Notes under the pieces: generated by a model
Seen by the model: the letters and a program-made list of their open reading frames with translations, nothing else
Told to the model about the DNA's origin: nothing
Databases searched by the model: none
Program-made: the position numbers and the translations under genes
Shown: positions 9,595 through 63,269 of the stretch, one piece after another
How positions within the stretch are numbered: the stretch's first letter is position 1
How the letters are laid out: every line of letters begins with the position of its first letter
Sequence record: NC_106514.1
Length of the DNA stretch: 64,000 nucleotides
Direction: 5' to 3' (one strand)
Source of the DNA: Escherichia phage vB_EcoS_ESCO40

Positions 9595-10266
9595 ATGGTA
9601 AGAAAGAAAATAACTACAGAAGATGTGAACTTAACACTTGCTCCCAGAGGAATAATTATGCTAAGCACGTATATATCAGCTAAATCCAATGCTATATTTA
9701 AGTGCTCTAATGGACATAGTTGGGAGGCTAGAGTAGATAATGTAAAAGGTGGGAGAGGTTGCCCTTATTGTGCTAGTCGTACTTTAGATCTTAAAGAGGT
9801 AAGTGAATCCTTAGCTGCTCGTGGAATAAAGATGGAAGGTAAATACATCAATTCTAAGAGTAAAATTATGTTCAGCTGTGAGAATAATCATAGGTGGGAG
9901 TCTACACTTGATAGTGTTAGAAACCATAGTTCTGGTTGTCCTATATGTTTATTAGAGAAGGATAATTATCCTACTAGCGTATATATTTTAATAAGTAATG
10001 TGGGAACCAAAATAGGAGTGTCTAGCAGAACTAAAGATAGACTCAGAGATATTAAAACTTCTTCTAACATACATGATTTAAAAATATTTAAGGAATATAG
10101 CTTTTCAGATAGATCAAAAGCTATGCGTATTGAAAGAGAGGCCCATTTACAGTTTAAGGAATATAATTGTCAGTACAAAGATTTTGATGGTGCTACAGAA
10201 TTTTTTAATATTGAGCCAGAAGTAGTAGCAAGGTTTATTGAGGAAATAATTAATGACAGAGAATGA
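9595..10266 (+). CDS. T5orf172 / GIY-YIG-like domain protein with two N-terminal zinc-ribbon repeats; putative homing-type endonuclease
   Basis: two repeats C-x-N-x-H-x-W-E...G-C-P-x-C (KCSNGHSWEARVDNVKGGRGCPYC, SCENNHRWESTLDSVRNHSSGCPIC); C-terminal VYILISNVGTKIGVSS...R..R pattern. Confidence 0.55.
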   Translation: MVRKKITTEDVNLTLAPRGIIMLSTYISAKSNAIFKCSNGHSWEARVDNVKGGRGCPYCASRTLDLKEVSESLAARGIKMEGKYINSKSKIMFSCENNHRWESTLDSVRNHSSGCPICLLEKDNYPTSVYILISNVGTKIGVSSRTKDRLRDIKTSSNIHDLKIFKEYSFSDRSKAMRIEREAHLQFKEYNCQYKDFDGATEFFNIEPEVVARFIEEIINDRE

Positions 10267-12121: not shown

Positions 12122-12150
12122 TTGCTTTCAGCCAAAAATTTATATATAAT
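12122..12150 (+). promoter_or_regulatory. sigma70-type early promoter (TTGCTT-17-TATAAT) with CATAAATTTGAGAGG leader
   Basis: TTGCTT 12122-12127, TATAAT 12145-12150, then AGATTTATAAATTTGAGAGGAG. Confidence 0.65.
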
Positions 12151-12178
12151 AGATTTATAAATTTGAGAGGAGAAGACT

Positions 12179-18888: not shown

Positions 18889-18917
18889 TTGCTTTCAGGA
18901 AAAATTTTCTGTATAAT
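18889..18917 (+). promoter_or_regulatory. sigma70-type early promoter; sequence matches (from memory) the classical T5 PN25 promoter
   Basis: AAATTATTTGCTTTCAGGAAAAATTTTCTGTATAATAGATTCATAAATTTGAGAGAGGAG; TTGCTT 18889-18894, TATAAT 18912-18917. Confidence 0.75.
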
Positions 18918-18948
18918 AGATTCATAAATTTGAGAGAGGAGTTTAAAT

Positions 18949-31395: not shown

Positions 31396-31478
31396 ATGAT
31401 GTATAATATATACATAAATTTGAGAGAGAAAGTTTCGGATTGATAAGAAAGTCCGAAGCAGAAAAATAAAAATTTTAG

Positions 31479-31508
31479 TTGCTAAATTCTCTCGAAATCT
31501 AGTATAAT
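31479..31508 (+). promoter_or_regulatory. sigma70-type early promoter (TTGCTA-18-TATAAT)
   Basis: TTGCTA 31479-31484, TATAAT 31503-31508, then ATATACATAAATTCGAGGAG; a related TATAAT / CATAAATTTGAGAGAG element sits at 31402-31430. Confidence 0.55.
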
Positions 31509-31615
31509 ATATACATAAATTCGAGGAGAAAACAAAAATTAAATTCTTCGATTATGAAAAGCTATACTTACTAGCTAGAGGAAATTCTGACCTAATTATT
31601 AAGCTATTCAAAAGA

Positions 31616-33233: not shown

Positions 33234-34207
33234 AAATACTCTTTAGTGCTGATCACCATATAAAACTTGGGCAAGATAAAATTCCCAAAGAATGGCAGAA
33301 GAAAAGATTCTTAATGCTGGGAGACCGTCTAAATGATATATTCCATAATCATAACTGTGATTTGCATATTATTGGTGGTGATTTATTTGATCATTCCGAC
33401 CCGTCGTCGGAAGAAGTAGAACTTCTAGAAAAATTTATGTCTAGGCTAGATCATATAGGAATGGTATTTACAGGTAATCATGAATTAATAACTAAAACCA
33501 TTTCGTGCCTATATCATTATGCGGGGGTTATTAACAAAGTAACTAGTGGGAAGTGGGAAGTAATTACCAAACCATATCGTTCCCCTGAATTTGATATTGT
33601 TCCGTATGATGAGATCCATAAATCTAAGTGGAAACCTCCTGTATCAAAACTATGTTTCACGCATGTTCGTGGTGAAATCCCTCCGCATGTAAAACCAGAA
33701 ATTGATCTAACTAAGTACAACTGTTATGATACTGTAATTGCTGGCGATTTACATTCTTATACTAATAGCCAGACTATCGGATCTACTAGACTTCTCTACC
33801 CAGGCTCTCCATTAACTACATCGTTCCATAGAGAACGCACAAAAGGTACAAATGGTTGCTTTATCATTGATACCGACACATTAAAAGTAGAATGGATTGA
33901 ACTAGGTGATTTACCACAACTGATTCGTAAAACAATCGGAGCAGGTGAAGAGATGGAACCTAGTGATTATGATCGTGTAGTCTACGAAGTTACTGGTGAC
34001 GTTGTTCAATTAAAGTCTATTAAAGACTCTGATTTATTAGATAAGAAGATTAACCATCGAGTTACTAAAGATGCTAAGTTAAATCTTGTTGATCTTGATA
34101 TGTTGGGCGAACTTGAACTTTACTTCCGTGAAGTCGAGAAGCTATCTCAAGGCGACATTGATAGAATCTTGGCTAGAGCTGCGAAATATGTCAAAGATTA
34201 CAATTAA
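33230..34207 (+). CDS. SbcD/Mre11-like nuclease subunit
   Basis: calcineurin-type phosphoesterase motifs FSADHH, GGDLFDH, TGNHE. Confidence 0.8.
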   Translation: MKILFSADHHIKLGQDKIPKEWQKKRFLMLGDRLNDIFHNHNCDLHIIGGDLFDHSDPSSEEVELLEKFMSRLDHIGMVFTGNHELITKTISCLYHYAGVINKVTSGKWEVITKPYRSPEFDIVPYDEIHKSKWKPPVSKLCFTHVRGEIPPHVKPEIDLTKYNCYDTVIAGDLHSYTNSQTIGSTRLLYPGSPLTTSFHRERTKGTNGCFIIDTDTLKVEWIELGDLPQLIRKTIGAGEEMEPSDYDRVVYEVTGDVVQLKSIKDSDLLDKKINHRVTKDAKLNLVDLDMLGELELYFREVEKLSQGDIDRILARAAKYVKDYN

Positions 34208-36026
34208 GACACTAAAATTTAGTAACGTTATGTCTTACGGTAAGGACATCGTAATTCATTTCGATAAGAATCCAGTTACTCAACTAATTGGTGGCAATGG
34301 GCTAGGGAAATCCACCATCGCTACGGTTATCGAGGAATTGTTTTATAACAAGAACTCTCGAGGTATCAAGAAGGATGCTCTATTCTCCTGGGCTTCTCCG
34401 AAGAAAGAATACGATATGCACGCTTACTTTTCAAAAGATGATGATGAGTATGAGCTGCATAAAGTTGTCAAGTCAACTGCTAAAGTAACGTTGATTAAGA
34501 ATGGGGAAGATATTAGTGGGCACACGGCAACCCAAACATACAAGATGATTGAAGAGATTATGGGTGGTGACTTTCAAACATTCACCAAACTGATTTATCA
34601 ATCAGTGGGTTCTAATCTAGATTTTCTAAAAGCAACAGATGCAACACGTAAGGCTTTTCTTGTTAACTTGTTCAATCAGGAACAATACAAAGAAATGTCG
34701 GAAACTATTAAGGCCGACCGTAAAGAAATAGCAAATACCTTAAATAATTTGCAGGGCCAAATGGCTGTAATTACGAAAATCCTTAATGGAAAAAATAATC
34801 TAGGAACTTTGCAGGAACCTGTAGAGGTGCCGGAGTTTGATGAAGAGCCATTAGCGCAAGAACTTACTGAATCGAAAATTAAGGCGGCATTAGCCAAGTC
34901 TCAAGAGGCTAATATTACTAAGTTGCGTAATTTGGACAAAGCTGTACAAGTTGCCGAACAATCTTTCGAACCTTTCAAAAATTTGCCCGCGCCCACCGAC
35001 CAAAATGAAGAGATCTCGAGTGTTACGCGTGACCTAACGATTGTGACCTCACGTGCGAGCGAAGTTAAGAAACGTTATCAGAAGTTCAAGCAAGAGGCTT
35101 CGAATACTGAATGCCCTACTTGCGGTACTCATCTAGATACAACTGCTGCTCAAAAAGCAATGGATATGGCTAGAGTAGAATATGATCCTCTGTTCAAAGA
35201 GAAGCAATCTCTTGAAGCTAAGCTAGAACAGTTGAAGAAAGAACAACTTGAGTACGTTGCGTATACTAGAGCAAAAGATGCTCTTGATAAAGCGGTGGTA
35301 GCTAGAGACGAGTTCAAAAATTCAATGAGTGATGCTTCTTTTGAAGAACTCAATGTGCAAATCCTACAGGTGCAAATCCGACAATTAGAACAGGCAATCG
35401 CTGATGGACGTTCTAAGGTTGCAATTGCCAAAGAGCATAATGCAAATGTAGAATTAGCCAATGCAAAATATAAAGCAAAGTTAGAACAGATTGAGAAAGC
35501 AGAAGCAGAAATGACTGAGATTACTTCCAAACTGAATGGAGTAGCCGAAGCTGTAGCTGATCTTGATATTCTAATTGCTGCTTTGAAAAATCTGGTGGGG
35601 TATAAACTAGAGCATAGTGTGAAAGTATTTGAAGAACTAATTAATAAATACCTTTCCATTATGACTGGAGGTAAATTCGCACTTGGATTTGAACTGGATG
35701 AAACGAAGTTACAAGTAGTAATCTTCAATGATGGAAACCGTACCAGTATGGAGAACTGCTCTACTGGTCAGCAAAGTCGAATTAATCTAGCAACCCTGTT
35801 AGCTATTCGGATGCTGTTAACATCTATTAGTAAAGTTAATATTAATCTTCTATTCCTTGATGAAGTAATTAGCTTTATTGATACGAAAGGACTTGATACT
35901 CTCGTTGAACTATTAAATGAGGAAGAAAGTCTAAATTCTATCATTGTTTCTCATGGGCATACGCATCCATTAGCTCATAAGATTACTGTCAAAAAAGATG
36001 CAGAAGGATTTTCCTACTTAGAATAA
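34188..36026 (+). CDS. SbcC/Rad50-like ATPase subunit
   Basis: Walker A GGNGLGKSTI, zinc-hook CPTCG within long coiled coil, signature CSTGQQSRIN, Walker B LLFLDEV; ATG 34188 (MSKITIKTLKF) used instead of ORF-track 34086. Confidence 0.8.
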   Translation: MSKITIKTLKFSNVMSYGKDIVIHFDKNPVTQLIGGNGLGKSTIATVIEELFYNKNSRGIKKDALFSWASPKKEYDMHAYFSKDDDEYELHKVVKSTAKVTLIKNGEDISGHTATQTYKMIEEIMGGDFQTFTKLIYQSVGSNLDFLKATDATRKAFLVNLFNQEQYKEMSETIKADRKEIANTLNNLQGQMAVITKILNGKNNLGTLQEPVEVPEFDEEPLAQELTESKIKAALAKSQEANITKLRNLDKAVQVAEQSFEPFKNLPAPTDQNEEISSVTRDLTIVTSRASEVKKRYQKFKQEASNTECPTCGTHLDTTAAQKAMDMARVEYDPLFKEKQSLEAKLEQLKKEQLEYVAYTRAKDALDKAVVARDEFKNSMSDASFEELNVQILQVQIRQLEQAIADGRSKVAIAKEHNANVELANAKYKAKLEQIEKAEAEMTEITSKLNGVAEAVADLDILIAALKNLVGYKLEHSVKVFEELINKYLSIMTGGKFALGFELDETKLQVVIFNDGNRTSMENCSTGQQSRINLATLLAIRMLLTSISKVNINLLFLDEVISFIDTKGLDTLVELLNEEESLNSIIVSHGHTHPLAHKITVKKDAEGFSYLE

Positions 36027-48901: not shown

Positions 48902-51900
48902 TTAAGAATTTCCTAGTGTTTTTAGGCTAGCACCATTCTCATTCAGAGCTAATTCTACTGCATCCCTCAGAGCACCGCTATTACTAGAGGCGAACTCTCT
49001 AAAACTAGCAGCATCCATAGCACTAATATTCAGGATGATAGGTCTTCCTGAGGTTGAATTAGAGGAATTTTTTAACTCATCATTAGGTGTAGCTTTCATA
49101 GGAATCATAGGTGTAATTACTTCTGTACCATGTTCTCCCATCTGGTAGCTAACCCCTGGGTACATATTACCACCTTCGGCACGAGGCACAAATGAATTAG
49201 CATTACCAATACCTTGATCACCACGTACATAGGATAGTTCCCCAGCATTAGCAGACATAGATACATCAATGTTCTTCTGACGCTCCCCAAGAGTTAAATA
49301 ACTAGTAGTATCCGCTCCAGAATCTGCAATACTTGACATACTAGAGGCAGAGGATGCCTGCGCTAATGCCAGAGCACCTGCTAATCCTGCCGCTACCATT
49401 AGAGGGATAGAGAACGGGTATGGTACAGCTGTTGCTGCCTGCATAACTGCTACTGCAGTTTGGATGATAATCTGCTTCTTAGCTGCATCTTGTTGAATCT
49501 TCAGCTTTTCAGCTTCTAGCTTCTTCAATTTAGCTTTAGATGCCTCAGATTTACCATCACGTTTCTGTTCGGCGGCGATAGCCTGATCAATGGCACTAAC
49601 CTGCTGACTAGTACTATATTGAATCATGGAAGCCACAGTCTGCATACCAACTGCAATAGTAGAAGTGGTATCTAGAGATCCCTGGGAGAACTGAATCATA
49701 GCATTGGCTAAGTTACCCATACTTTGTGCTACCGCAGTTGCTTCGGAGTTTAGCTCGGACAGCTTAGAGATTGCTTGGTCATAAGAAGCCAATTGATTTC
49801 CCATATCTGCAAATTTCTTATCTTCTCCAGATAACCCAGTAGTAGGGGTGTATACAGCACCTAAAGAAGATCCAACAGAAGCTTGCATTTGAGCATTACG
49901 TTGCGCTGTTAAAGCAGACATTTGAGCCCTTGTCTTAGCTATTTCAGCATTCCAGCGCATCTGCTCATTAGCATTACCTTTAGTAAGTTCCTTCATCTGA
50001 GTATAAAAATCTAGCTGCATTTCCATTTTCTGCATTTCCCCAGCCAGAGGGAACATGGAAGTTAGTGTATTTTCAAAGGCTTCTTGCCTTTTGCGGGTCA
50101 TTTCAGCTTGCTGATCTTGGCGGAATTTCCAGATTTCACGCTCTATCTGTGCTTGAGCACGCCTAGATTGTTCAGCCTCTTTTTGTTTATCTGCCTGTTT
50201 TGTGTACCACTCATACTTTTCCTTTTCAATAGTCAGCTCTAGATTTAACTGCGCCAGACGATACTGAGTATCAGTCATAGTACGGTTATTCAAGAGAGCA
50301 ATCTCACGATCTACACCAAGAATTTTATCTGTGTAATCCTTGACCTTCTTCTGAGCTTCCATACCCTGATTGGTAAGTTTAAGTTTCTCCAGCTGAATTT
50401 TTTCAATTTCTTTCTCAACAGCTTTATTCCCCTGGTTTGTTTTAAGAACACGGCGTAAAGCAGCTTCTTGCTCTTCTAACTGTTGCAACTCTAAACGTCT
50501 ACCAGCTTCCTGAGCCTTTTCCTTATCCTTAGTTTGATTATACACATCAGCTATTTTCTGTTGAACTGCTAACTGATTTTTAGTTTCATTACCAGTTAGT
50601 TTAACATACTCAGATAGAGCCTGAGATGCAGTTTTCATTTCAGACAGGGTGTTATAGCCCAGGTTAAGGTTTTTAACATATTCATCGGCACTCTTACCAG
50701 TGCCTAAGGATAGAGATTCTATGTTTTTTATAGCATCTGCTAAAGTAGCACTAGTTTTAGCAGCAGTATCTGTATTCTGAGCAACGTTCTGTATATCATT
50801 AGCTAAGTCACTAGCAGTTTTCTTAGTTTGATTATATGCTTTCTGTTGTTCAGTTAGCCCTTTTAATACTGTGGAGTTAAAGTCATATACAGCACCAGGA
50901 TCAGTAGTATCCCTCTGTAGATTAATCTGTTTTTGGAATTCTGGATTAGCTTTTGCAGCAGCAGCACCCGCAGCTTGATAGGCTGACTTCCAAGCATTAA
51001 GGTTTTCAGTAGAATCTTCTACCTCCTTACCTAGTCTGGTTACTTGTAGACCCATAGCTGCAGTTTCTTCTACGAACTTTTTATTAGCTTCGGAAGCACC
51101 AGCAGCAGCAAGACCAACAGGAATACCTTCACCAACTTGACGTATGGCTAATCTTGTATAGAAATCCGCTTGCTCCATTCGTTTATCGAATTCGGATTTT
51201 AGCTTATTACGCTTATCAAGAGATTCCTTATACATATCTAGAGCTTTATTATAGCCTTCTTCAGAAGCGGCCAAACTTAAAGCAACAGCACCAACGTTGG
51301 TAGGATCTATCTGTCTATTAGTTTTTTCTTGAGCTCTAGCTGCTTCAGCAGATACAGAAGCCTGAGAAGTATAAAATACTGTGTTGATAGCATCAATTAC
51401 TGGTCCTAAGTACTTAGCAGCAGCTTGTTGTATTGTTCTTAATGCAGCATCAGCATTAGCAGCAAACTGCTCCCATGGAGTAGCACGCAGAACTTCATCT
51501 AGATACCCGAATTGTTTAGTAGATTCTGCTATAGCAGCCTTAGCGTATGCCTGCTGTTTCTGGAAAGTAGTAAGACTATTAATGTTATAAGTTATACCCG
51601 TGTTAGCAGCATTTAGCTGTTTAACATAGTCAGCATAAGCATCGTTAAGACGAATAGTAATACCAAGTTCATCCATAAGTTCGATTTCTTGTTTAGATAT
51701 ACCCTTAATTACACGGTTAAGTGCATCAGTCATATCAACACCAAGAACAGCAGCCGCACGACGTGCTATCAAACCAAACTGCTCCAGTTGTTCAGCATCA
51801 AATCCGTACGCAGAAGCAGAGGATGCTTGTCTCATTGCTTCTTCAAAGGAGATAGCATATCCGGCAGCTTCTTGTAGTGATCTAGCAAGAGACTGAACAG

Positions 51901-52585
51901 GAGTACCTGTCTGAGTACCTACTATAACACCAAATTTTTCTAGACGATTTAGCTGGTCACCTAGTTTAAGTTGTTCGAATGCAGATTGCAAAACGAAGAT
52001 GTTGGAAGCAAGAGCTGCGTACATAATAGGTAAACTACCACCTATCTTAGCCATTGCTGCAAAATCACGAGTTGCACCGCGTGCTGAACCAGAAGTATTA
52101 CCAATAGCTCTAGAAGCCCTACCAGCAGCACCAGTAGTATCATTAAAGCCTTTAGTTGTACCACCTAAAGCTCTATTAGTATCGTATAACCTATCTTGAA
52201 CTTTCTCTGTTGCAGATGCAACATCATTACCCATTGCTTTAACAGATCTAGAAACCCCATCGAATCCAATTTCTAGCTTATCTGTTACTTCAATAAGTTG
52301 AATAGCCAGGTAATCTAGCTTATCACCAATACCCTCAATGGATTTAGTGATACCAGCCATACCCCTACTAGCTTGCATTTTAGTAAGACTTTTTGCTGCC
52401 CTGTCTGCTGCCCTCTCAATGGAGTATAGAGTTTTGGGCATTTTACCTAACTGTTCATTTGTCAGTTCGGAAGCAGCAGCAGCATTTTCTAATGCATCAG
52501 ATACGTTTTCAATAGACTTCGCAGTACGGGTTGCCCCTTTCTGTTTAACGTCTATTAGTAATTCTCGTATTAGCTTATCAGTCAT
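48902..52585 (-). CDS. tail tape measure protein
   Basis: 1227-aa ORF, long Ala/Gln-rich helical regions, between tail-chaperone-sized ORFs and the distal tail protein. Confidence 0.8.
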   Translation of the reverse strand: MTDKLIRELLIDVKQKGATRTAKSIENVSDALENAAAASELTNEQLGKMPKTLYSIERAADRAAKSLTKMQASRGMAGITKSIEGIGDKLDYLAIQLIEVTDKLEIGFDGVSRSVKAMGNDVASATEKVQDRLYDTNRALGGTTKGFNDTTGAAGRASRAIGNTSGSARGATRDFAAMAKIGGSLPIMYAALASNIFVLQSAFEQLKLGDQLNRLEKFGVIVGTQTGTPVQSLARSLQEAAGYAISFEEAMRQASSASAYGFDAEQLEQFGLIARRAAAVLGVDMTDALNRVIKGISKQEIELMDELGITIRLNDAYADYVKQLNAANTGITYNINSLTTFQKQQAYAKAAIAESTKQFGYLDEVLRATPWEQFAANADAALRTIQQAAAKYLGPVIDAINTVFYTSQASVSAEAARAQEKTNRQIDPTNVGAVALSLAASEEGYNKALDMYKESLDKRNKLKSEFDKRMEQADFYTRLAIRQVGEGIPVGLAAAGASEANKKFVEETAAMGLQVTRLGKEVEDSTENLNAWKSAYQAAGAAAAKANPEFQKQINLQRDTTDPGAVYDFNSTVLKGLTEQQKAYNQTKKTASDLANDIQNVAQNTDTAAKTSATLADAIKNIESLSLGTGKSADEYVKNLNLGYNTLSEMKTASQALSEYVKLTGNETKNQLAVQQKIADVYNQTKDKEKAQEAGRRLELQQLEEQEAALRRVLKTNQGNKAVEKEIEKIQLEKLKLTNQGMEAQKKVKDYTDKILGVDREIALLNNRTMTDTQYRLAQLNLELTIEKEKYEWYTKQADKQKEAEQSRRAQAQIEREIWKFRQDQQAEMTRKRQEAFENTLTSMFPLAGEMQKMEMQLDFYTQMKELTKGNANEQMRWNAEIAKTRAQMSALTAQRNAQMQASVGSSLGAVYTPTTGLSGEDKKFADMGNQLASYDQAISKLSELNSEATAVAQSMGNLANAMIQFSQGSLDTTSTIAVGMQTVASMIQYSTSQQVSAIDQAIAAEQKRDGKSEASKAKLKKLEAEKLKIQQDAAKKQIIIQTAVAVMQAATAVPYPFSIPLMVAAGLAGALALAQASSASSMSSIADSGADTTSYLTLGERQKNIDVSMSANAGELSYVRGDQGIGNANSFVPRAEGGNMYPGVSYQMGEHGTEVITPMIPMKATPNDELKNSSNSTSGRPIILNISAMDAASFREFASSNSGALRDAVELALNENGASLKTLGNS

Positions 52586-55834: not shown

Positions 55835-56320
55835 TTATCTGCGAAGTGACCTACGTGGAGGCTGATACCTCACTGTTACATTTATTTCTGCTAAACCATA
55901 TGGGGCCAGTAGACCCTCATCTGTACTAACTGATGTAATGCTCATATCAGTCGCCTCACATGGGAAGGTCGATCCATTAGGTTTACTAACAGTATATTCT
56001 AAATTTCCACCTGTGTCAATAACGGTTTTTATATCCGCTACGAGTTTTTCAAGTTGCTCTTGAATGTCTGTTTTCTCTTTATCGTACACCAGGATTGGAA
56101 GTTCTAAAAACATCCACTGTTGGCCTGAAGGAAGATACTGCCCAGTTTCAGTTCCGATATGAACTGCAACATAAGGAAACTCTCGTATCTCCTCAAACTT
56201 ATAAGTTTGACGTGAGACGTTTCCATACAAGTTATTAAAATATTCATCTGGTTGAGAGCCATCCATTTGTTTGGCTATTCGGTCAACCAGAGCTTGTGCT
56301 ATACTTGTTCTGTGATCCAT
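55835..56320 (-). CDS. tail completion / neck protein (by position)
   Basis: 161-aa ORF between head and tail tube genes. Confidence 0.45.
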   Translation of the reverse strand: MDHRTSIAQALVDRIAKQMDGSQPDEYFNNLYGNVSRQTYKFEEIREFPYVAVHIGTETGQYLPSGQQWMFLELPILVYDKEKTDIQEQLEKLVADIKTVIDTGGNLEYTVSKPNGSTFPCEATDMSITSVSTDEGLLAPYGLAEINVTVRYQPPRRSLRR

Positions 56321-57603: not shown

Positions 57604-57642
57604 TTATTTTTCCCAATAAAAAAGGAGAGCCGAAGCTCTCCT
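57604..57642 (-). terminator. strong stem-loop (UUCG loop) plus U-tract after the major capsid gene, with conserved A/T box
   Basis: AGGAGAGC-UUCG-GCUCUCCU then UUUUUUAUUGGGAAAAAUAAAU-AUG on minus strand. Confidence 0.65.
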
Positions 57643-57662
57643 TATCGGCTGAAAAGCCTGTA

Positions 57663-59692: not shown

Positions 59693-60187
59693 TTAGCCTC
59701 CAGGAACAGTAGGATTAACTGTCACAGCACATGTAGTAGAGTCCTTGCTTACTTGCTTACTATCTGTTACAGTTACTTTATAGGCTCCAGAATCCTCCGT
59801 AGCTGCTGCAGGCTTAGTATAGGTAGCTCCTGAAGCATCCGGAATAGGAGAACCATCTTTAGTCCATGCATAAGTATATGGACCAGTACCACCAGTTGCA
59901 GTAACAGAAAGTGTTAATGCTGTTCCCTCTTCAACGGACATGCTAGCAGTTAAATCTTTAGAAAGAGTTAACGGTGGGGCCGGTGGAGCAGGAGGAACTG
60001 CTTTACCATAAGCCTCTACAAATTTCTTCCATACTTTACGGTTAGTATGCGCAGATGAAAGTCCTAGTTCTCTACGCAGAAAAGCATAGCTAGGAACATA
60101 TTTATGCGCAGCAACCGTAGCAAAGAAGATATGAGATTCTGGCAGTTTTTCACCAAAAATGGTCTTTAGACCATTATAATCAATCAT
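59693..60187 (-). CDS. head decoration protein with C-terminal Ig-like domain
   Basis: 164 aa; Pro-rich linker PPAPPAPP then Ig-like region (TLSVTATGGTGPYTYAWTKDG...YKVTVTD). Confidence 0.65.
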   Translation of the reverse strand: MIDYNGLKTIFGEKLPESHIFFATVAAHKYVPSYAFLRRELGLSSAHTNRKVWKKFVEAYGKAVPPAPPAPPLTLSKDLTASMSVEEGTALTLSVTATGGTGPYTYAWTKDGSPIPDASGATYTKPAAATEDSGAYKVTVTDSKQVSKDSTTCAVTVNPTVPGG

Positions 60188-61401
60188 TCTTTATCTCCCT
60201 CGGTGGAACCTTGAGGTCTACCACCTTCTTGACCAGATACACCTGTTGCAGAACCAGCAACGTTAGCAGGAATACGAATCTTATCCATCTGCTCATCATC
60301 TAAAGGTTCAAGGTTCAGCTCTAAACGAGCTTCGTTACCAGTCATAATACCATTATTAACCAATGAGGTTAAATGTTTAGCCTCAGCTTCTTTATCTGGG
60401 GTTAATGCAGCTACCTCCTTAGTATTAGGGGTAATCTTATAACCAAAAAAGAAAGTAAGAGAACTAGTCAGTTTGTTCAGCATAGGAATGATAGTCATAT
60501 AATAGAACAATTCGATGTTTGGTCGAATATTCGCATTATTACCACCATCAAGCAGTACTTGCGGAACACCAAAGGCTAGACAGATAGATTTATTAAATCC
60601 TTCGATGTCTTCCTTAAAGTCTAGATCTTTAAAAGAGGATATTTGGGAGTACGGTTTAGCTTTCATACCACCATCTAGAATCAGGACAGAAGACTGACCC
60701 GTACTAGGATTATAATCGAGTTGTAATTCTTCTTGTTTACGCTCACGCAATTTCTTGTTCAGGATTTCATCCGTCTCAAGAATAAGACCAATCACGGTAC
60801 CGTTATCGAGGAATTTCTCTTTAAAGTTAAGCATTTTAGAACGCTTCTCGAGAGAATCAATAACAGTAGCAACACGAGATTGTCCAGAAATTTGAGAATT
60901 TGTGCCACACACGTAACTGTTATCCTTTATAAAGATAATCTCATCTACGCGATAGTCTATCTGATTATTAAATATAAATTTTTTGATAAACTTATTGGCA
61001 TCTGCCTCGACCTGCATAAGAGCGGCCGGGACATGGTAAAGCGATGTGCCATCCCAATAGATGTATGCACAACCTTCAAAAAGTAGGTCAGTGACTACAA
61101 GTCTACGGAATGTGCTTATATCCATGAATGGATTAGGTCGTACATTTAAGAGAGTGTCTAGAGTCTTTGTCTTGATGCCATTGGCATACGTGACAATATT
61201 ATATTTATCTCCGACAGTATAAGAACACTCCGCCGCACTATCTATAACCATATTGGCAGTTCGATTGAGAATCTCAATCTTGCTATAGGCTTGTCCAGTG
61301 GTAAAAGGCTTACGGTTAGTGCGATGACTAACTGGTTCCATGTCTCTTATAATACGTTGACCCGGATTTAACTTTTCAGTAATCCAGCTTTTTAAACCCA
61401 T
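60184..61401 (-). CDS. portal protein
   Basis: 405-aa ORF between the terminase region and head genes; size and position. Confidence 0.65.
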   Translation of the reverse strand: MGLKSWITEKLNPGQRIIRDMEPVSHRTNRKPFTTGQAYSKIEILNRTANMVIDSAAECSYTVGDKYNIVTYANGIKTKTLDTLLNVRPNPFMDISTFRRLVVTDLLFEGCAYIYWDGTSLYHVPAALMQVEADANKFIKKFIFNNQIDYRVDEIIFIKDNSYVCGTNSQISGQSRVATVIDSLEKRSKMLNFKEKFLDNGTVIGLILETDEILNKKLRERKQEELQLDYNPSTGQSSVLILDGGMKAKPYSQISSFKDLDFKEDIEGFNKSICLAFGVPQVLLDGGNNANIRPNIELFYYMTIIPMLNKLTSSLTFFFGYKITPNTKEVAALTPDKEAEAKHLTSLVNNGIMTGNEARLELNLEPLDDEQMDKIRIPANVAGSATGVSGQEGGRPQGSTEGDKE

Positions 61402-61838
61402 TATAAGAACCTTGCGAATCCTGATTTTATTTCAGTCTTGACTTGTGTCTTTTCTTGAGGATTCTGTAATTTGTCTTTCTGCTTTTGAACCCACACTTTT
61501 TGCTTATTAGCAGAAAATAAAGGAGGTTCTTTTGTGTAAACCTTATGTAATAGTTGGTGATGGTGTACACAAAGGGTAACAGTGTCTTCTACCAGCTCAT
61601 GCCTATATCGATCATAGAATGCCGTCCTATTTGAAAGGACTGTTTCTTCGTCAGTGAAATCCAATTGGAGTTCTTTAGCAAATTTTTTAACTAGTAGAGA
61701 CACCGTATGGTAATGATGAAGCTCTAATTCTTCAGCACAACCGCAGATAGCACATTGAGAGTCTTTTTTATATTGACTTTTTATTCCGTCTCTCATAAGG
61801 GATATAGCATCGCGTTTATATTTTATATTGCTTGCCAT
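61401..61838 (-). CDS. HNH endonuclease (zinc-binding), free-standing cassette
   Basis: CAICGCAEELELHHYH ... LCVHHHQLLHK; ATG 61836-61838 with GAGGAG site; own promoter and upstream terminator. Confidence 0.65.
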   Translation of the reverse strand: MASNIKYKRDAISLMRDGIKSQYKKDSQCAICGCAEELELHHYHTVSLLVKKFAKELQLDFTDEETVLSNRTAFYDRYRHELVEDTVTLCVHHHQLLHKVYTKEPPLFSANKQKVWVQKQKDKLQNPQEKTQVKTEIKSGFARFL

Positions 61839-61864
61839 AGTGTTCTCCTCAACTGTATGAATAT

Positions 61865-61893
61865 AGTATACATAATCGTATCGAATTTGTAAA
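61865..61893 (-). promoter_or_regulatory. sigma70-type promoter (TTTACA-17-TATACT) for the HNH gene
   Basis: minus strand TTTACA (61888-61893), TATACT (61865-61870). Confidence 0.5.
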
Positions 61894-61915
61894 GGGGATT
61901 TTAAAATACAGGAAT

Positions 61916-61939
61916 GGGATACCAACTGAGTAGTATCCC
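61916..61939 (-). terminator. stem-loop after the large terminase gene
   Basis: GGGATAC / GTATCCC 7-bp stem; minus strand then reads AUUCCUGUAUUUUAAAAUC. Confidence 0.45.
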
Positions 61940-61952
61940 ATCCTATACTTAT

Positions 61953-63269
61953 TTATTTACCACGGGAAATAGAGTAAATTCCATAGCGGAGCGCATCACA
62001 AAGGTGAGAGTTAGCATCATGACGTGGTTTTTCACGTGATAATTTCTCTTCACCTTCTTGGAAATCCCACTTATAGTTCTGCAGTGCATGGATTAATGAG
62101 GAACATGAAGCATCTACAATAATCTTACCCTGTTGGAATAGTGCCTGCAGACATGCTAGGCCATCTAGGACAGATTTTTTAGCTGGAGCCGATGCGATTT
62201 CATGCTCATAAGCTAAGTCCTGTCGGAACTGAGCTGCTGCAGAGTCAACAAAAATACGATCAACTTTATAACGATCTATACAGTGCTGAATATAAGCAGC
62301 ATGCTGAGCTGTAGTTTTCTCCGCCTGCTGGTACTCTTCTAATACATAGTAAGTATCCGTATCGTAATGATATTTAATAGTAAGAACTGCTGTAGGATCA
62401 CGATAACCAACGTCAATACCAAGCAACGTTTCGAATGCTTCATCATCTTTAAAGAAGTGACGCATACCTTTGAGGTCTTTAACATGATCGATAGCATTAA
62501 AGGTATCAAAGATCTGGCCCTCGAATACAGAGAAGTCAGCCTCGTATTCTTGGCGGAAGTAGTTTTTACTAACTGTACGGCGTGCTTCCTCAATATCATT
62601 CAAGTCAGCACGTGGGTTATCACGATATGTACCATGAATAGATACCCAGTTAGGCAACGTATCATCAAATCCGTAGGCGTAAAACTCTTTAAACCAGTTA
62701 CCTCCACGAGGGGTGGAAATAAATAGAGCCTTAGAATTAGGTTTATCCAGAGTAGGACGCAGCTGAACCCTGAAAGCATCACCACCCACGTCGGAAATTG
62801 CCGCTTCGTCAAAGATGATAAAATCATATGAACGTCCAACTGCGGAGTCAGCCTGCGCCGCAGAAGCTAGTTTGAAGAGCGAGCCGTTTGCCAGCTCAAT
62901 CTCTTTATCTTTGGCGTTTTCACGTTCGGTTTGTAGGCCATACTTCTTGATAAGACCACGAATCTGTGACCAACCAATGTTAGCCAGTGAGTAGTTAGGG
63001 GCAACTACTAGTACCTTCACATTAGGTTCCAGCAATTTTAGGAACCCAAGTGTGTATGCTATAAAGGACTTGCCTACACGGCGTGATACACACGCCGTTA
63101 CAAAACGATGTCTAGGGTCTTCTAGGGCATTGATAATTGCTATTTGAGGGCCATTAGGCGTGATACCCTCTTGTGCTAGTATTCCGGAAACAGGTAAACG
63201 AAAGAAACGCTTATCTATTCCGAAATCAATAACATCTACTGTGTTAACATAGGGTCTTGATACTTCCAT
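61953..63269 (-). CDS. terminase large subunit
   Basis: 438 aa; Walker A-like CVSRRVGKSF, Walker B IIFDEAAISD, C-terminal nuclease-like region. Confidence 0.8.
   Translation of the reverse strand: MEVSRPYVNTVDVIDFGIDKRFFRLPVSGILAQEGITPNGPQIAIINALEDPRHRFVTACVSRRVGKSFIAYTLGFLKLLEPNVKVLVVAPNYSLANIGWSQIRGLIKKYGLQTERENAKDKEIELANGSLFKLASAAQADSAVGRSYDFIIFDEAAISDVGGDAFRVQLRPTLDKPNSKALFISTPRGGNWFKEFYAYGFDDTLPNWVSIHGTYRDNPRADLNDIEEARRTVSKNYFRQEYEADFSVFEGQIFDTFNAIDHVKDLKGMRHFFKDDEAFETLLGIDVGYRDPTAVLTIKYHYDTDTYYVLEEYQQAEKTTAQHAAYIQHCIDRYKVDRIFVDSAAAQFRQDLAYEHEIASAPAKKSVLDGLACLQALFQQGKIIVDASCSSLIHALQNYKWDFQEGEEKLSREKPRHDANSHLCDALRYGIYSISRGK

Follow-up and report, generated by a model that had tools for sequence, protein, structure and literature searches.

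The window analysed here, a 64-kb stretch of DNA from Escherichia phage vB_EcoS_ESCO40 (record NC_106514.1), is a segment of a T5-like phage genome, with ~98% nucleotide identity to T5-like phages. The gene under study lies between those of the large terminase and the portal protein, and with a probability of about 0.9 it is the sciA gene of this phage, encoding a site-specific nicking endonuclease orthologous to T5 SciA (T5.153). The ~1.6 kb around it is 97-98.5% identical to Tequintavirus-type phages of Escherichia and Salmonella, BF23 included. The minus strand carries every gene of the part of the window that runs from the small terminase to the capsid, and the portal gene is followed downstream by those for a decoration protein, a prohead protease and the major capsid protein. 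The features of the locus, in the direction of transcription, are these:

63751-63269, minus strand: small terminase gene (terS)
61953-63269, minus strand: large terminase gene (terL), with Pfam Terminase_6N and Terminase_6C domains; 100% amino-acid identity to T5 terL
61904..61950, minus strand: long terminator-like hairpin that begins 2 bases after the terL stop and is followed by UUUUAAAA
61857..61893, minus strand: promoter, with -35 TTTACA (61893-61888), a 17-nt spacer, -10 TATACT (61870-61865) and ATATTCAT (61864-61857)
61845..61850, minus strand: Shine-Dalgarno sequence GAGGAG, 6 bases upstream of the sciA ATG, read from the sequence and the alignment
61401..61838, minus strand: sciA, for a probable site-specific nicking endonuclease of 145 aa, ortholog of T5 T5.153/SciA and apparently a divergent zinc-binding HNH protein
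60184..61401, minus strand: portal gene (Pfam Phage_portal, 1.9e-50)
57622..57643, minus strand: canonical intrinsic terminator after the major capsid gene, AAGGAGAGCTTCGGCTCTCCTT followed by TTTTATT; a terminator is also annotated at the corresponding position of the T5 record

The mechanical listing of open reading frames (ORFs) gives sciA as 61401..61925 on the minus strand, 174 aa from a TTG at 61925, whereas the 145-aa form begins at the ATG at 61838 (MASNIKYKRD...). We place the start at this ATG rather than at the TTG because GAGGAG sits upstream of it. The 174-aa form was rejected: it begins inside the hairpin, runs through the promoter and has no ribosome-binding site, and a near-'MA.N' beginning is common to all 48 aligned SciA homologs. 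In phages Seafire (locus L008) and mar003J3 (locus L012) an extended sciA of 174 aa, likewise beginning in the hairpin region, is annotated at 1414-1938, and both carry a GTG at the position of the sciA ATG. The protein contains the motifs C29-A-I-C32-G, H41-H42-Y-H44 and C90-V-H-H93-H94. The first-pass annotation had described a 145-aa protein with CAICG, HHYH and CVHHH between terL and the portal gene, and the ORF listing, the alignment and the Pfam matches of the neighbours agree with that description.

The identification rests on orthology, on a fold that matches the solved SciA, on the conservation of catalytic and zinc residues, of the promoter and of the hairpin, on a distribution typical of a core gene, on the layout of the operon and on one orthologous T5 nick site. 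A phmmer search against PDB sequences returned 9QGV_A/9QGX_A (molecule 'Nicking endonuclease') with E 3.7e-79 over residues 1-145. The two entries, released on 2026-03-25, are titled 'SciA(H42Q)' and 'SciA(H42A) endonuclease from Escherichia phage T5', complexed with 10 bp DNA (GCGC sequence). In the T5 reference record the equivalent gene at the same position is T5.153, whose product (PF26848) is 82.8% identical to that of the window; the 25 amino-acid differences are concentrated in residues 3-90. The precomputed label PF26848 is found on all 114 database homologs, and 'nicking (site-specific) endonuclease' is a name already used by many GenBank records and UniRef. Across 49 homologs, down to 41% identity, C29, C32, H41, H42, C90, H94 and H98 never vary, and H93 is kept in at least 90%. 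According to the phmmer alignment, H42 is the residue that was replaced by Q or A to inactivate the T5 protein that was crystallised. The feature is an already characterised enzyme of T5-like phages, neither a selfish cassette nor a helper in cos cutting.

That T5 DNA carries single-strand nicks was already known in the 1960s. Fixed one-strand nicks are described in the virion DNA of both T5 and BF23 (PMC10644984). PMC3517423 reports that sciA and sciB were mapped to the late region of T5, that the sci genes are responsible for the nicks in T5 DNA, that nickless mutants are viable and that the biological purpose of the nicks is unknown; it gives the consensus of the four major T5 nicks as R/GCGCRGG, the slash marking the nick. 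In the window protein, a structural zinc would be held by C29 and C32 together with C90 and H93. The catalytic histidine is H42, with which the first strand ends, and H94 and H98 on the following helix would be ligands of the catalytic metal. The enzyme would then recognise GCGC-containing sites resembling the T5 consensus and cut only one strand, yielding the fixed interruptions that are typical of T5 and BF23 virion DNA.

The T5 record AY543070 places the major interruptions on its minus strand at 9748, 22336, 39746 and 78573. Three of these sites read A/GCGCAGGG and one reads G/GCGCGGGC, and the latter is present with identical context at position 34993 of the window. Matches to the T5 consensus in the window are as follows:

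34986..34993, minus strand: GG/GCGCGGG, candidate SciA target with a predicted nick between 34993 and 34992; positional ortholog of the T5 'major single-chain interruption' 78573/78574
49357..49364, minus strand: RGCGCRGG match and possible minor nick site, inside a 1227-aa ORF (48902-52585)
62852..62859, minus strand: RGCGCRGG match and possible minor nick site, inside terL; conserved in T5 at 107524

The 52-nt context of the site at 34993 is identical to that of the T5 site at 78573. It lies antisense within a 646-aa plus-strand ORF (34086-36026) that corresponds in position to T5 D13, the gene holding the T5 site. Judging from this sequence match, the DNA of the phage would be nicked on the minus strand between 34993 and 34992. 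All three RGCGCRGG sites of the window (34993, 49364 and 62859) are on the minus strand, three being too few to be meaningful; bare GCGC is palindromic and carries no strand information.

Several points weigh against the identification, or against extending it to the sites that the enzyme cuts. RGCGCRGG is not enriched in the window, where its 3 sites compare with an expected 1.7 and 24 of the 100 shuffles also reach 3, and three of the four T5 coordinates (22336, 39746 and 78573, the counterpart of the window site) are themselves annotated as 'identified by match to the consensus'. SciA of the window differs from T5 SciA by 17%, mostly within the N-terminal 90 residues, and to judge by the sequence an identical site specificity is not guaranteed. 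What is known of SciA enzymology comes from PDB titles, database names and a secondary citation, and no primary description of the 9QGV/9QGX structures or of the assignment of T5.153 as SciA was found in the literature searched. Finally, SciA has no match in Pfam-A (E up to 10) or NCBIfam (E up to 1), the Pfam copy searched being evidently one without PF26848.

The first-pass annotation had considered the protein a zinc-binding nuclease of the HNH type, to be doubted should profile searches show no HNH fold, and on this the searches are divided: Pfam and NCBIfam are silent, whereas the HNH profiles of PHROGs, sub-threshold matches of the relatives and the tails of fold searches point to HNH. 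In PHROGs, SciA falls into the unnamed family phrog_3497 (4e-69) and has weak matches to two HNH families, with E 6.5e-6 and 3.7e-3. Sub-threshold Pfam matches of the HNH type among the 49 homologs are to AI2M-like_HNH (11), HNH (2), HNHc_6 (1) and HNH_2 (1), the best with E 0.012. A profile search against PDB sequences returned SciA alone, and in a search of a viral structure library the low-scoring tail consists mostly of proteins named HNH or HNHc. The model of SciA matches the fold of the solved SciA. It has a strand at 38-42 ending in H41-H42, a strand at 86-90 ending in C90 and a helix at 91-101 bearing H93, H94 and H98, and a helical insertion of ~43 residues separates the two strands. 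At the level of the fold, then, the model does give SciA the ββα-metal (HNH/His-Me finger) topology with a CxxC...CxxH zinc site, in a very divergent form; together with the conserved Cys and His residues it upholds the assignment to zinc-binding HNH-type nucleases.

The region upstream of sciA contains both a promoter and a hairpin. TTTACA-17-TATACT is the top promoter match (10/12) in a 5-kb scan. Promoter-like matches are not enriched, however, with 14 found and 13.8 expected from shuffles, and the hexamers alone prove nothing; the sciA promoter is convincing because it is conserved, not because of the hexamer match. Upstream of sciA, both Klebsiella phage Sugarland and Vibrio phage Ceto retain the -35, the -10 and the following A(T/G)ATTCAT but not the sequence of the spacer, which diverges, and a promoter is annotated at this position in the GenBank record of BF23 (OR083247). 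Within the window the extended -10 motif is over-represented: 15 sites have at most 2 mismatches, where 5.6 are expected, and no shuffle out of 100 reached that number. Classical strong T5 promoters, PN25 among them, carry TATAAT-AGATTCAT as their hallmark, and the extended -10 signature probably marks a class of T5-type promoters. Sites of the form TATA(A/C)T-A(T/G)ATTCAT are found at 95-108 and 61857-61870 on the minus strand and at 12145-12158, 18912-18925, 31402-31415 and 31503-31516 on the plus strand. Past the terminator of the capsid operon, a near-consensus promoter-like TTGACA-17-TATACT (11/12; 55991-56019, minus strand) lies inside a 161-aa ORF (55835-56320).

The hairpin has a core at 61912-61943, a terminator-like match of 13 pairs that can be extended to 61904-61950, and its tail runs into the A/T-rich stretch that precedes the promoter. 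Its folding energy is -25.3 kcal/mol (z -5.4), and none of 200 shuffles folds as well. At the same position Sugarland forms a hairpin whose arms differ in sequence (-21.1 kcal/mol, z -5.1), and folding at the equivalent place in Ceto revealed no such hairpin. The hairpin fits a terminator-like element that would close the terS-terL unit. Conservation in Sugarland and Ceto, the enrichment of the motif and the BF23 annotation all speak for the promoter that had been proposed at 61865-61893, and the stem-loop first placed at 61916-61939 is real by comparison with shuffled sequences and larger than first drawn.

The stop codon of sciA and the ATG of the portal gene share one base (TAATG, 61403-61399), which suggests translational coupling of the two genes. 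The genes after the portal overlap or stand 3-17 nt apart, and on the minus strand no terminator-like site is found from sciA until the one downstream of the capsid gene (57643-57622), likely the end of the operon begun at the sciA promoter. This overlap, the tight spacing and the lack of an earlier terminator together lead us to conclude that the promoter heads a sciA-portal-decoration-protease-capsid operon. The first-pass view of a 'free-standing' cassette does not stand, as the gene overlaps the portal gene and its promoter heads a head operon of five genes. The T5-type promoter and sciA would thus open a head-morphogenesis operon that continues through portal, decoration protein, prohead protease and capsid to the terminator. 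Being encoded by the first cistron, with a stop codon overlapping the portal start, SciA would be produced alongside the head proteins, presumably late, during DNA maturation and packaging.

This arrangement would also fit a terminase-accessory HNH protein of the HK97 gp74 or GVE2 type, that is, one that binds terminase or portal, stimulates or completes the cuts at genome ends and is needed for packaging. Co-expression with the head genes would suit such a packaging-linked role, as would the position of sciA between terL and a portal gene to which it appears to be translationally coupled. The GVE2 HNH enzyme is also a nickase. Both HK97 gp74 and the HNH protein of Geobacillus phage GVE2 (PDB 5H0O) are likewise small zinc-binding HNH proteins encoded beside packaging genes, and this type shares with SciA the order CxxC, (D/H)H, CxxHH with a helical insert; in an hhalign alignment with gp74 the order CxxC...(D/H)H...long helical insert...LCxxHH is the same. 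Yet the comparison of the 49-sequence profile with gp74, a one-sequence comparison, is not significant (probability 0.85%, E 0.065), and gp74 itself matches Pfam HNH, which SciA does not. The crystals of the ortholog, a protein named as a nicking endonuclease, contain GCGC DNA, and T5-like genomes end in terminal direct repeats of ~10 kb, not in cos ends. Moreover, the viability of nickless T5 sci mutants, as reported in PMC3517423, implies that SciA is not essential for packaging. The proposal that the protein helps terminase cutting therefore receives no support from its ortholog, from the T5 mutants or from gp74, and we consider such a role improbable.

The identification as a nicking endonuclease is further strengthened by the distribution of the gene. 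In a tblastn search SciA was found in 898 phage records and the T5-type portal in 903, and the counts by host name (sciA/portal) run in parallel: Vibrio 356/356, Salmonella 267/268, Escherichia 128/128, Klebsiella 81/81, Proteus 10/10 and Aeromonas 7/7. The order terS-terL-(variable insert)-sciA-portal is kept in Vibrio phage Ceto, Klebsiella phage Sugarland and Proteus phage 2, and the position of sciA is constant in four lineages of Demerecviridae (Markadamsvirinae, Ermolyevavirinae, Sugarlandvirus and Novosibvirus). No genome with an empty sciA site was seen among the records inspected. Near-universal presence and a fixed position mark sciA as a core gene rather than a sporadic homing endonuclease.

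This presence/absence comparison bears directly on the other suggestion made at first, a free-standing homing endonuclease, in which a selfish HNH cassette with its own promoter would parasitise the packaging module from between two of its genes. In favour of such a cassette, sciA encodes a small nuclease of the HNH type and occupies an intergenic slot that has a promoter, HNH homing endonuclease genes are many in T5-like phages, and sciA is far more divergent from T5 (79.5% nucleotide identity) than its flanks (96-97%). The T5 homing endonucleases (F-TflI, II, IV and hegA-hegG) are, like SciA, HNH-superfamily nucleases; phage Stitch is reported to be without genes of the Tfl type. However, the notes of the T5 record assign standard HNH InterPro domains to the Tfl genes, which are a main source of local genome differences among relatives, whereas SciA matches no standard HNH model and occurs at a fixed position in essentially all members of the group. 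The promoter also serves the portal and head genes, and the presence/absence polymorphism at this place belongs to another gene, a nuclease with a T5orf172/MUG113 domain, whose insertion also explains the local divergence of the 5' end of sciA. That sciA is itself a homing endonuclease must accordingly be regarded as very improbable.

The universal conservation of sciA, although nickless mutants are viable, invites yet another explanation, namely that nicking of the SciA type serves a purpose beyond the marking of virion DNA, such as nicking of host or competitor DNA or counter-defence, the genomic nicks being a side effect. GCGC is frequent in the host genome, which is of higher G+C, and the purpose of the T5 nicks is given as unknown in PMC3517423. 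Against this, the probable late expression with the head genes fits action on progeny DNA, and the nicks in phage DNA are both strand-specific and site-specific; a wider role of this kind seems to us hardly likely. Site-specific one-strand interruptions, also of unknown purpose, occur in Pseudomonas phiKMV-like phages and in phage tf, with recognition sequences that differ from that of SciA (in phage tf, for example, TACT/RTGMC; PMC3517423). For these phages the same source speaks of a 'phage nickase' or 'nicking system', with no gene indicated there.

The mobile element of the locus is not sciA, a core gene, but its neighbour. T5, NR01, JLBYU43 and Sugarland have an extra gene between terL and sciA that encodes T5orf172/MUG113 (GIY-YIG-like) and treble-clef zinc-finger domains; in T5 this is T5.154, which separates the promoter from sciA. 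The window and BF23 lack it and show the insert-free arrangement. The insertion point corresponds to window 61856/61857, between the promoter and the ribosome-binding site of sciA. The window and T5 share 144/144 identical bases from inside terL through the hairpin and promoter to 61857, where the T5 insert of ~737 nt begins, ending at the sciA start. The remark 'promoter absent in T5 phage' in the BF23 record is contradicted by this comparison, since the same 144 bases contain both hairpin and promoter in T5. The slot appears as an insertion hotspot for nucleases with T5orf172/MUG113, CapR and treble-clef zinc-finger domains (T5.154, NR01_0085, JLBYU43_179 and Sugarland gp071); in the extracted loci the inserts lie at 5786-6522 of L002 (T5), 837-1511 of both L009 and L011, and 2331-3011 of L006. 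In Proteus phage 2 it is occupied by an unrelated 683-aa ORF with no Pfam match.

T5.154 is annotated with 277 aa, from an ATG inside the terL-proximal hairpin, and so reads through the promoter (L002 6523-6607, equivalent to window 61857-61941). In NR01 and JLBYU43 a nuclease of 224 aa is annotated, and the Pfam domains are shifted by 53 residues relative to T5.154. The comparison of these sequences indicates that the annotated start of T5.154 probably lies 53 codons too far upstream.

The first ~300 nt of sciA (61539-61838) show only 57-90% nucleotide identity per 60-nt bin to T5, NR01, JLBYU43 and Salmonella phage phA11, whereas the region downstream of this tract (61001-61538) is 90-100% identical to the same four phages. 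At the protein level the window and T5 are 100% identical in terL and 97.8% in the portal, compared with 82.8% in SciA. In phA11 (locus L010, 1238-1500) the first ~45 nt of the T5-type insert are kept after the promoter and give way to unrelated A/T-rich sequence; this intergenic region of 263 nt has no annotated ORF and may be the scar of a lost nuclease gene. The divergent 5' tract of sciA is present in every insert- or scar-bearing genome examined (T5, NR01, JLBYU43 and phA11), flanked on either side by sequence of 90-100% identity. Such a pattern points to co-conversion with the mobile nuclease gene next to it, or to an immunity allele linked to that gene. We can offer only tentatively, as the less probable course, the further idea of a homing system directed at the start of sciA, of which the window would have the empty-site allele and the T5orf172/MUG113 nucleases would be the mobile part.

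The enzyme responsible for the T5 nicks has by now been named (SciA) and given a database family label, and its structures have been solved; for the window the value of the analysis lies in a correct annotation, that of a core, operon-embedded nicking endonuclease. A useful by-product is the probable over-extension of the T5.154 start in the T5 reference record. At the junction between the terminase and head operons, the terminator-like hairpin and the promoter are both conserved between Escherichia and Klebsiella phages, and the promoter alone as far as the Vibrio phages. The one mildly new angle is the divergence of the 5' half of sciA in association with a homing nuclease, a clear-cut case in which a core gene has a divergence tract right beside a mobile nuclease gene. 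Should the homing system exist, the mobile nuclease would cut within the 5' part of sciA, and its spread would drag along, or select, a variant N-terminal half of SciA, possibly with an altered nick-site preference.

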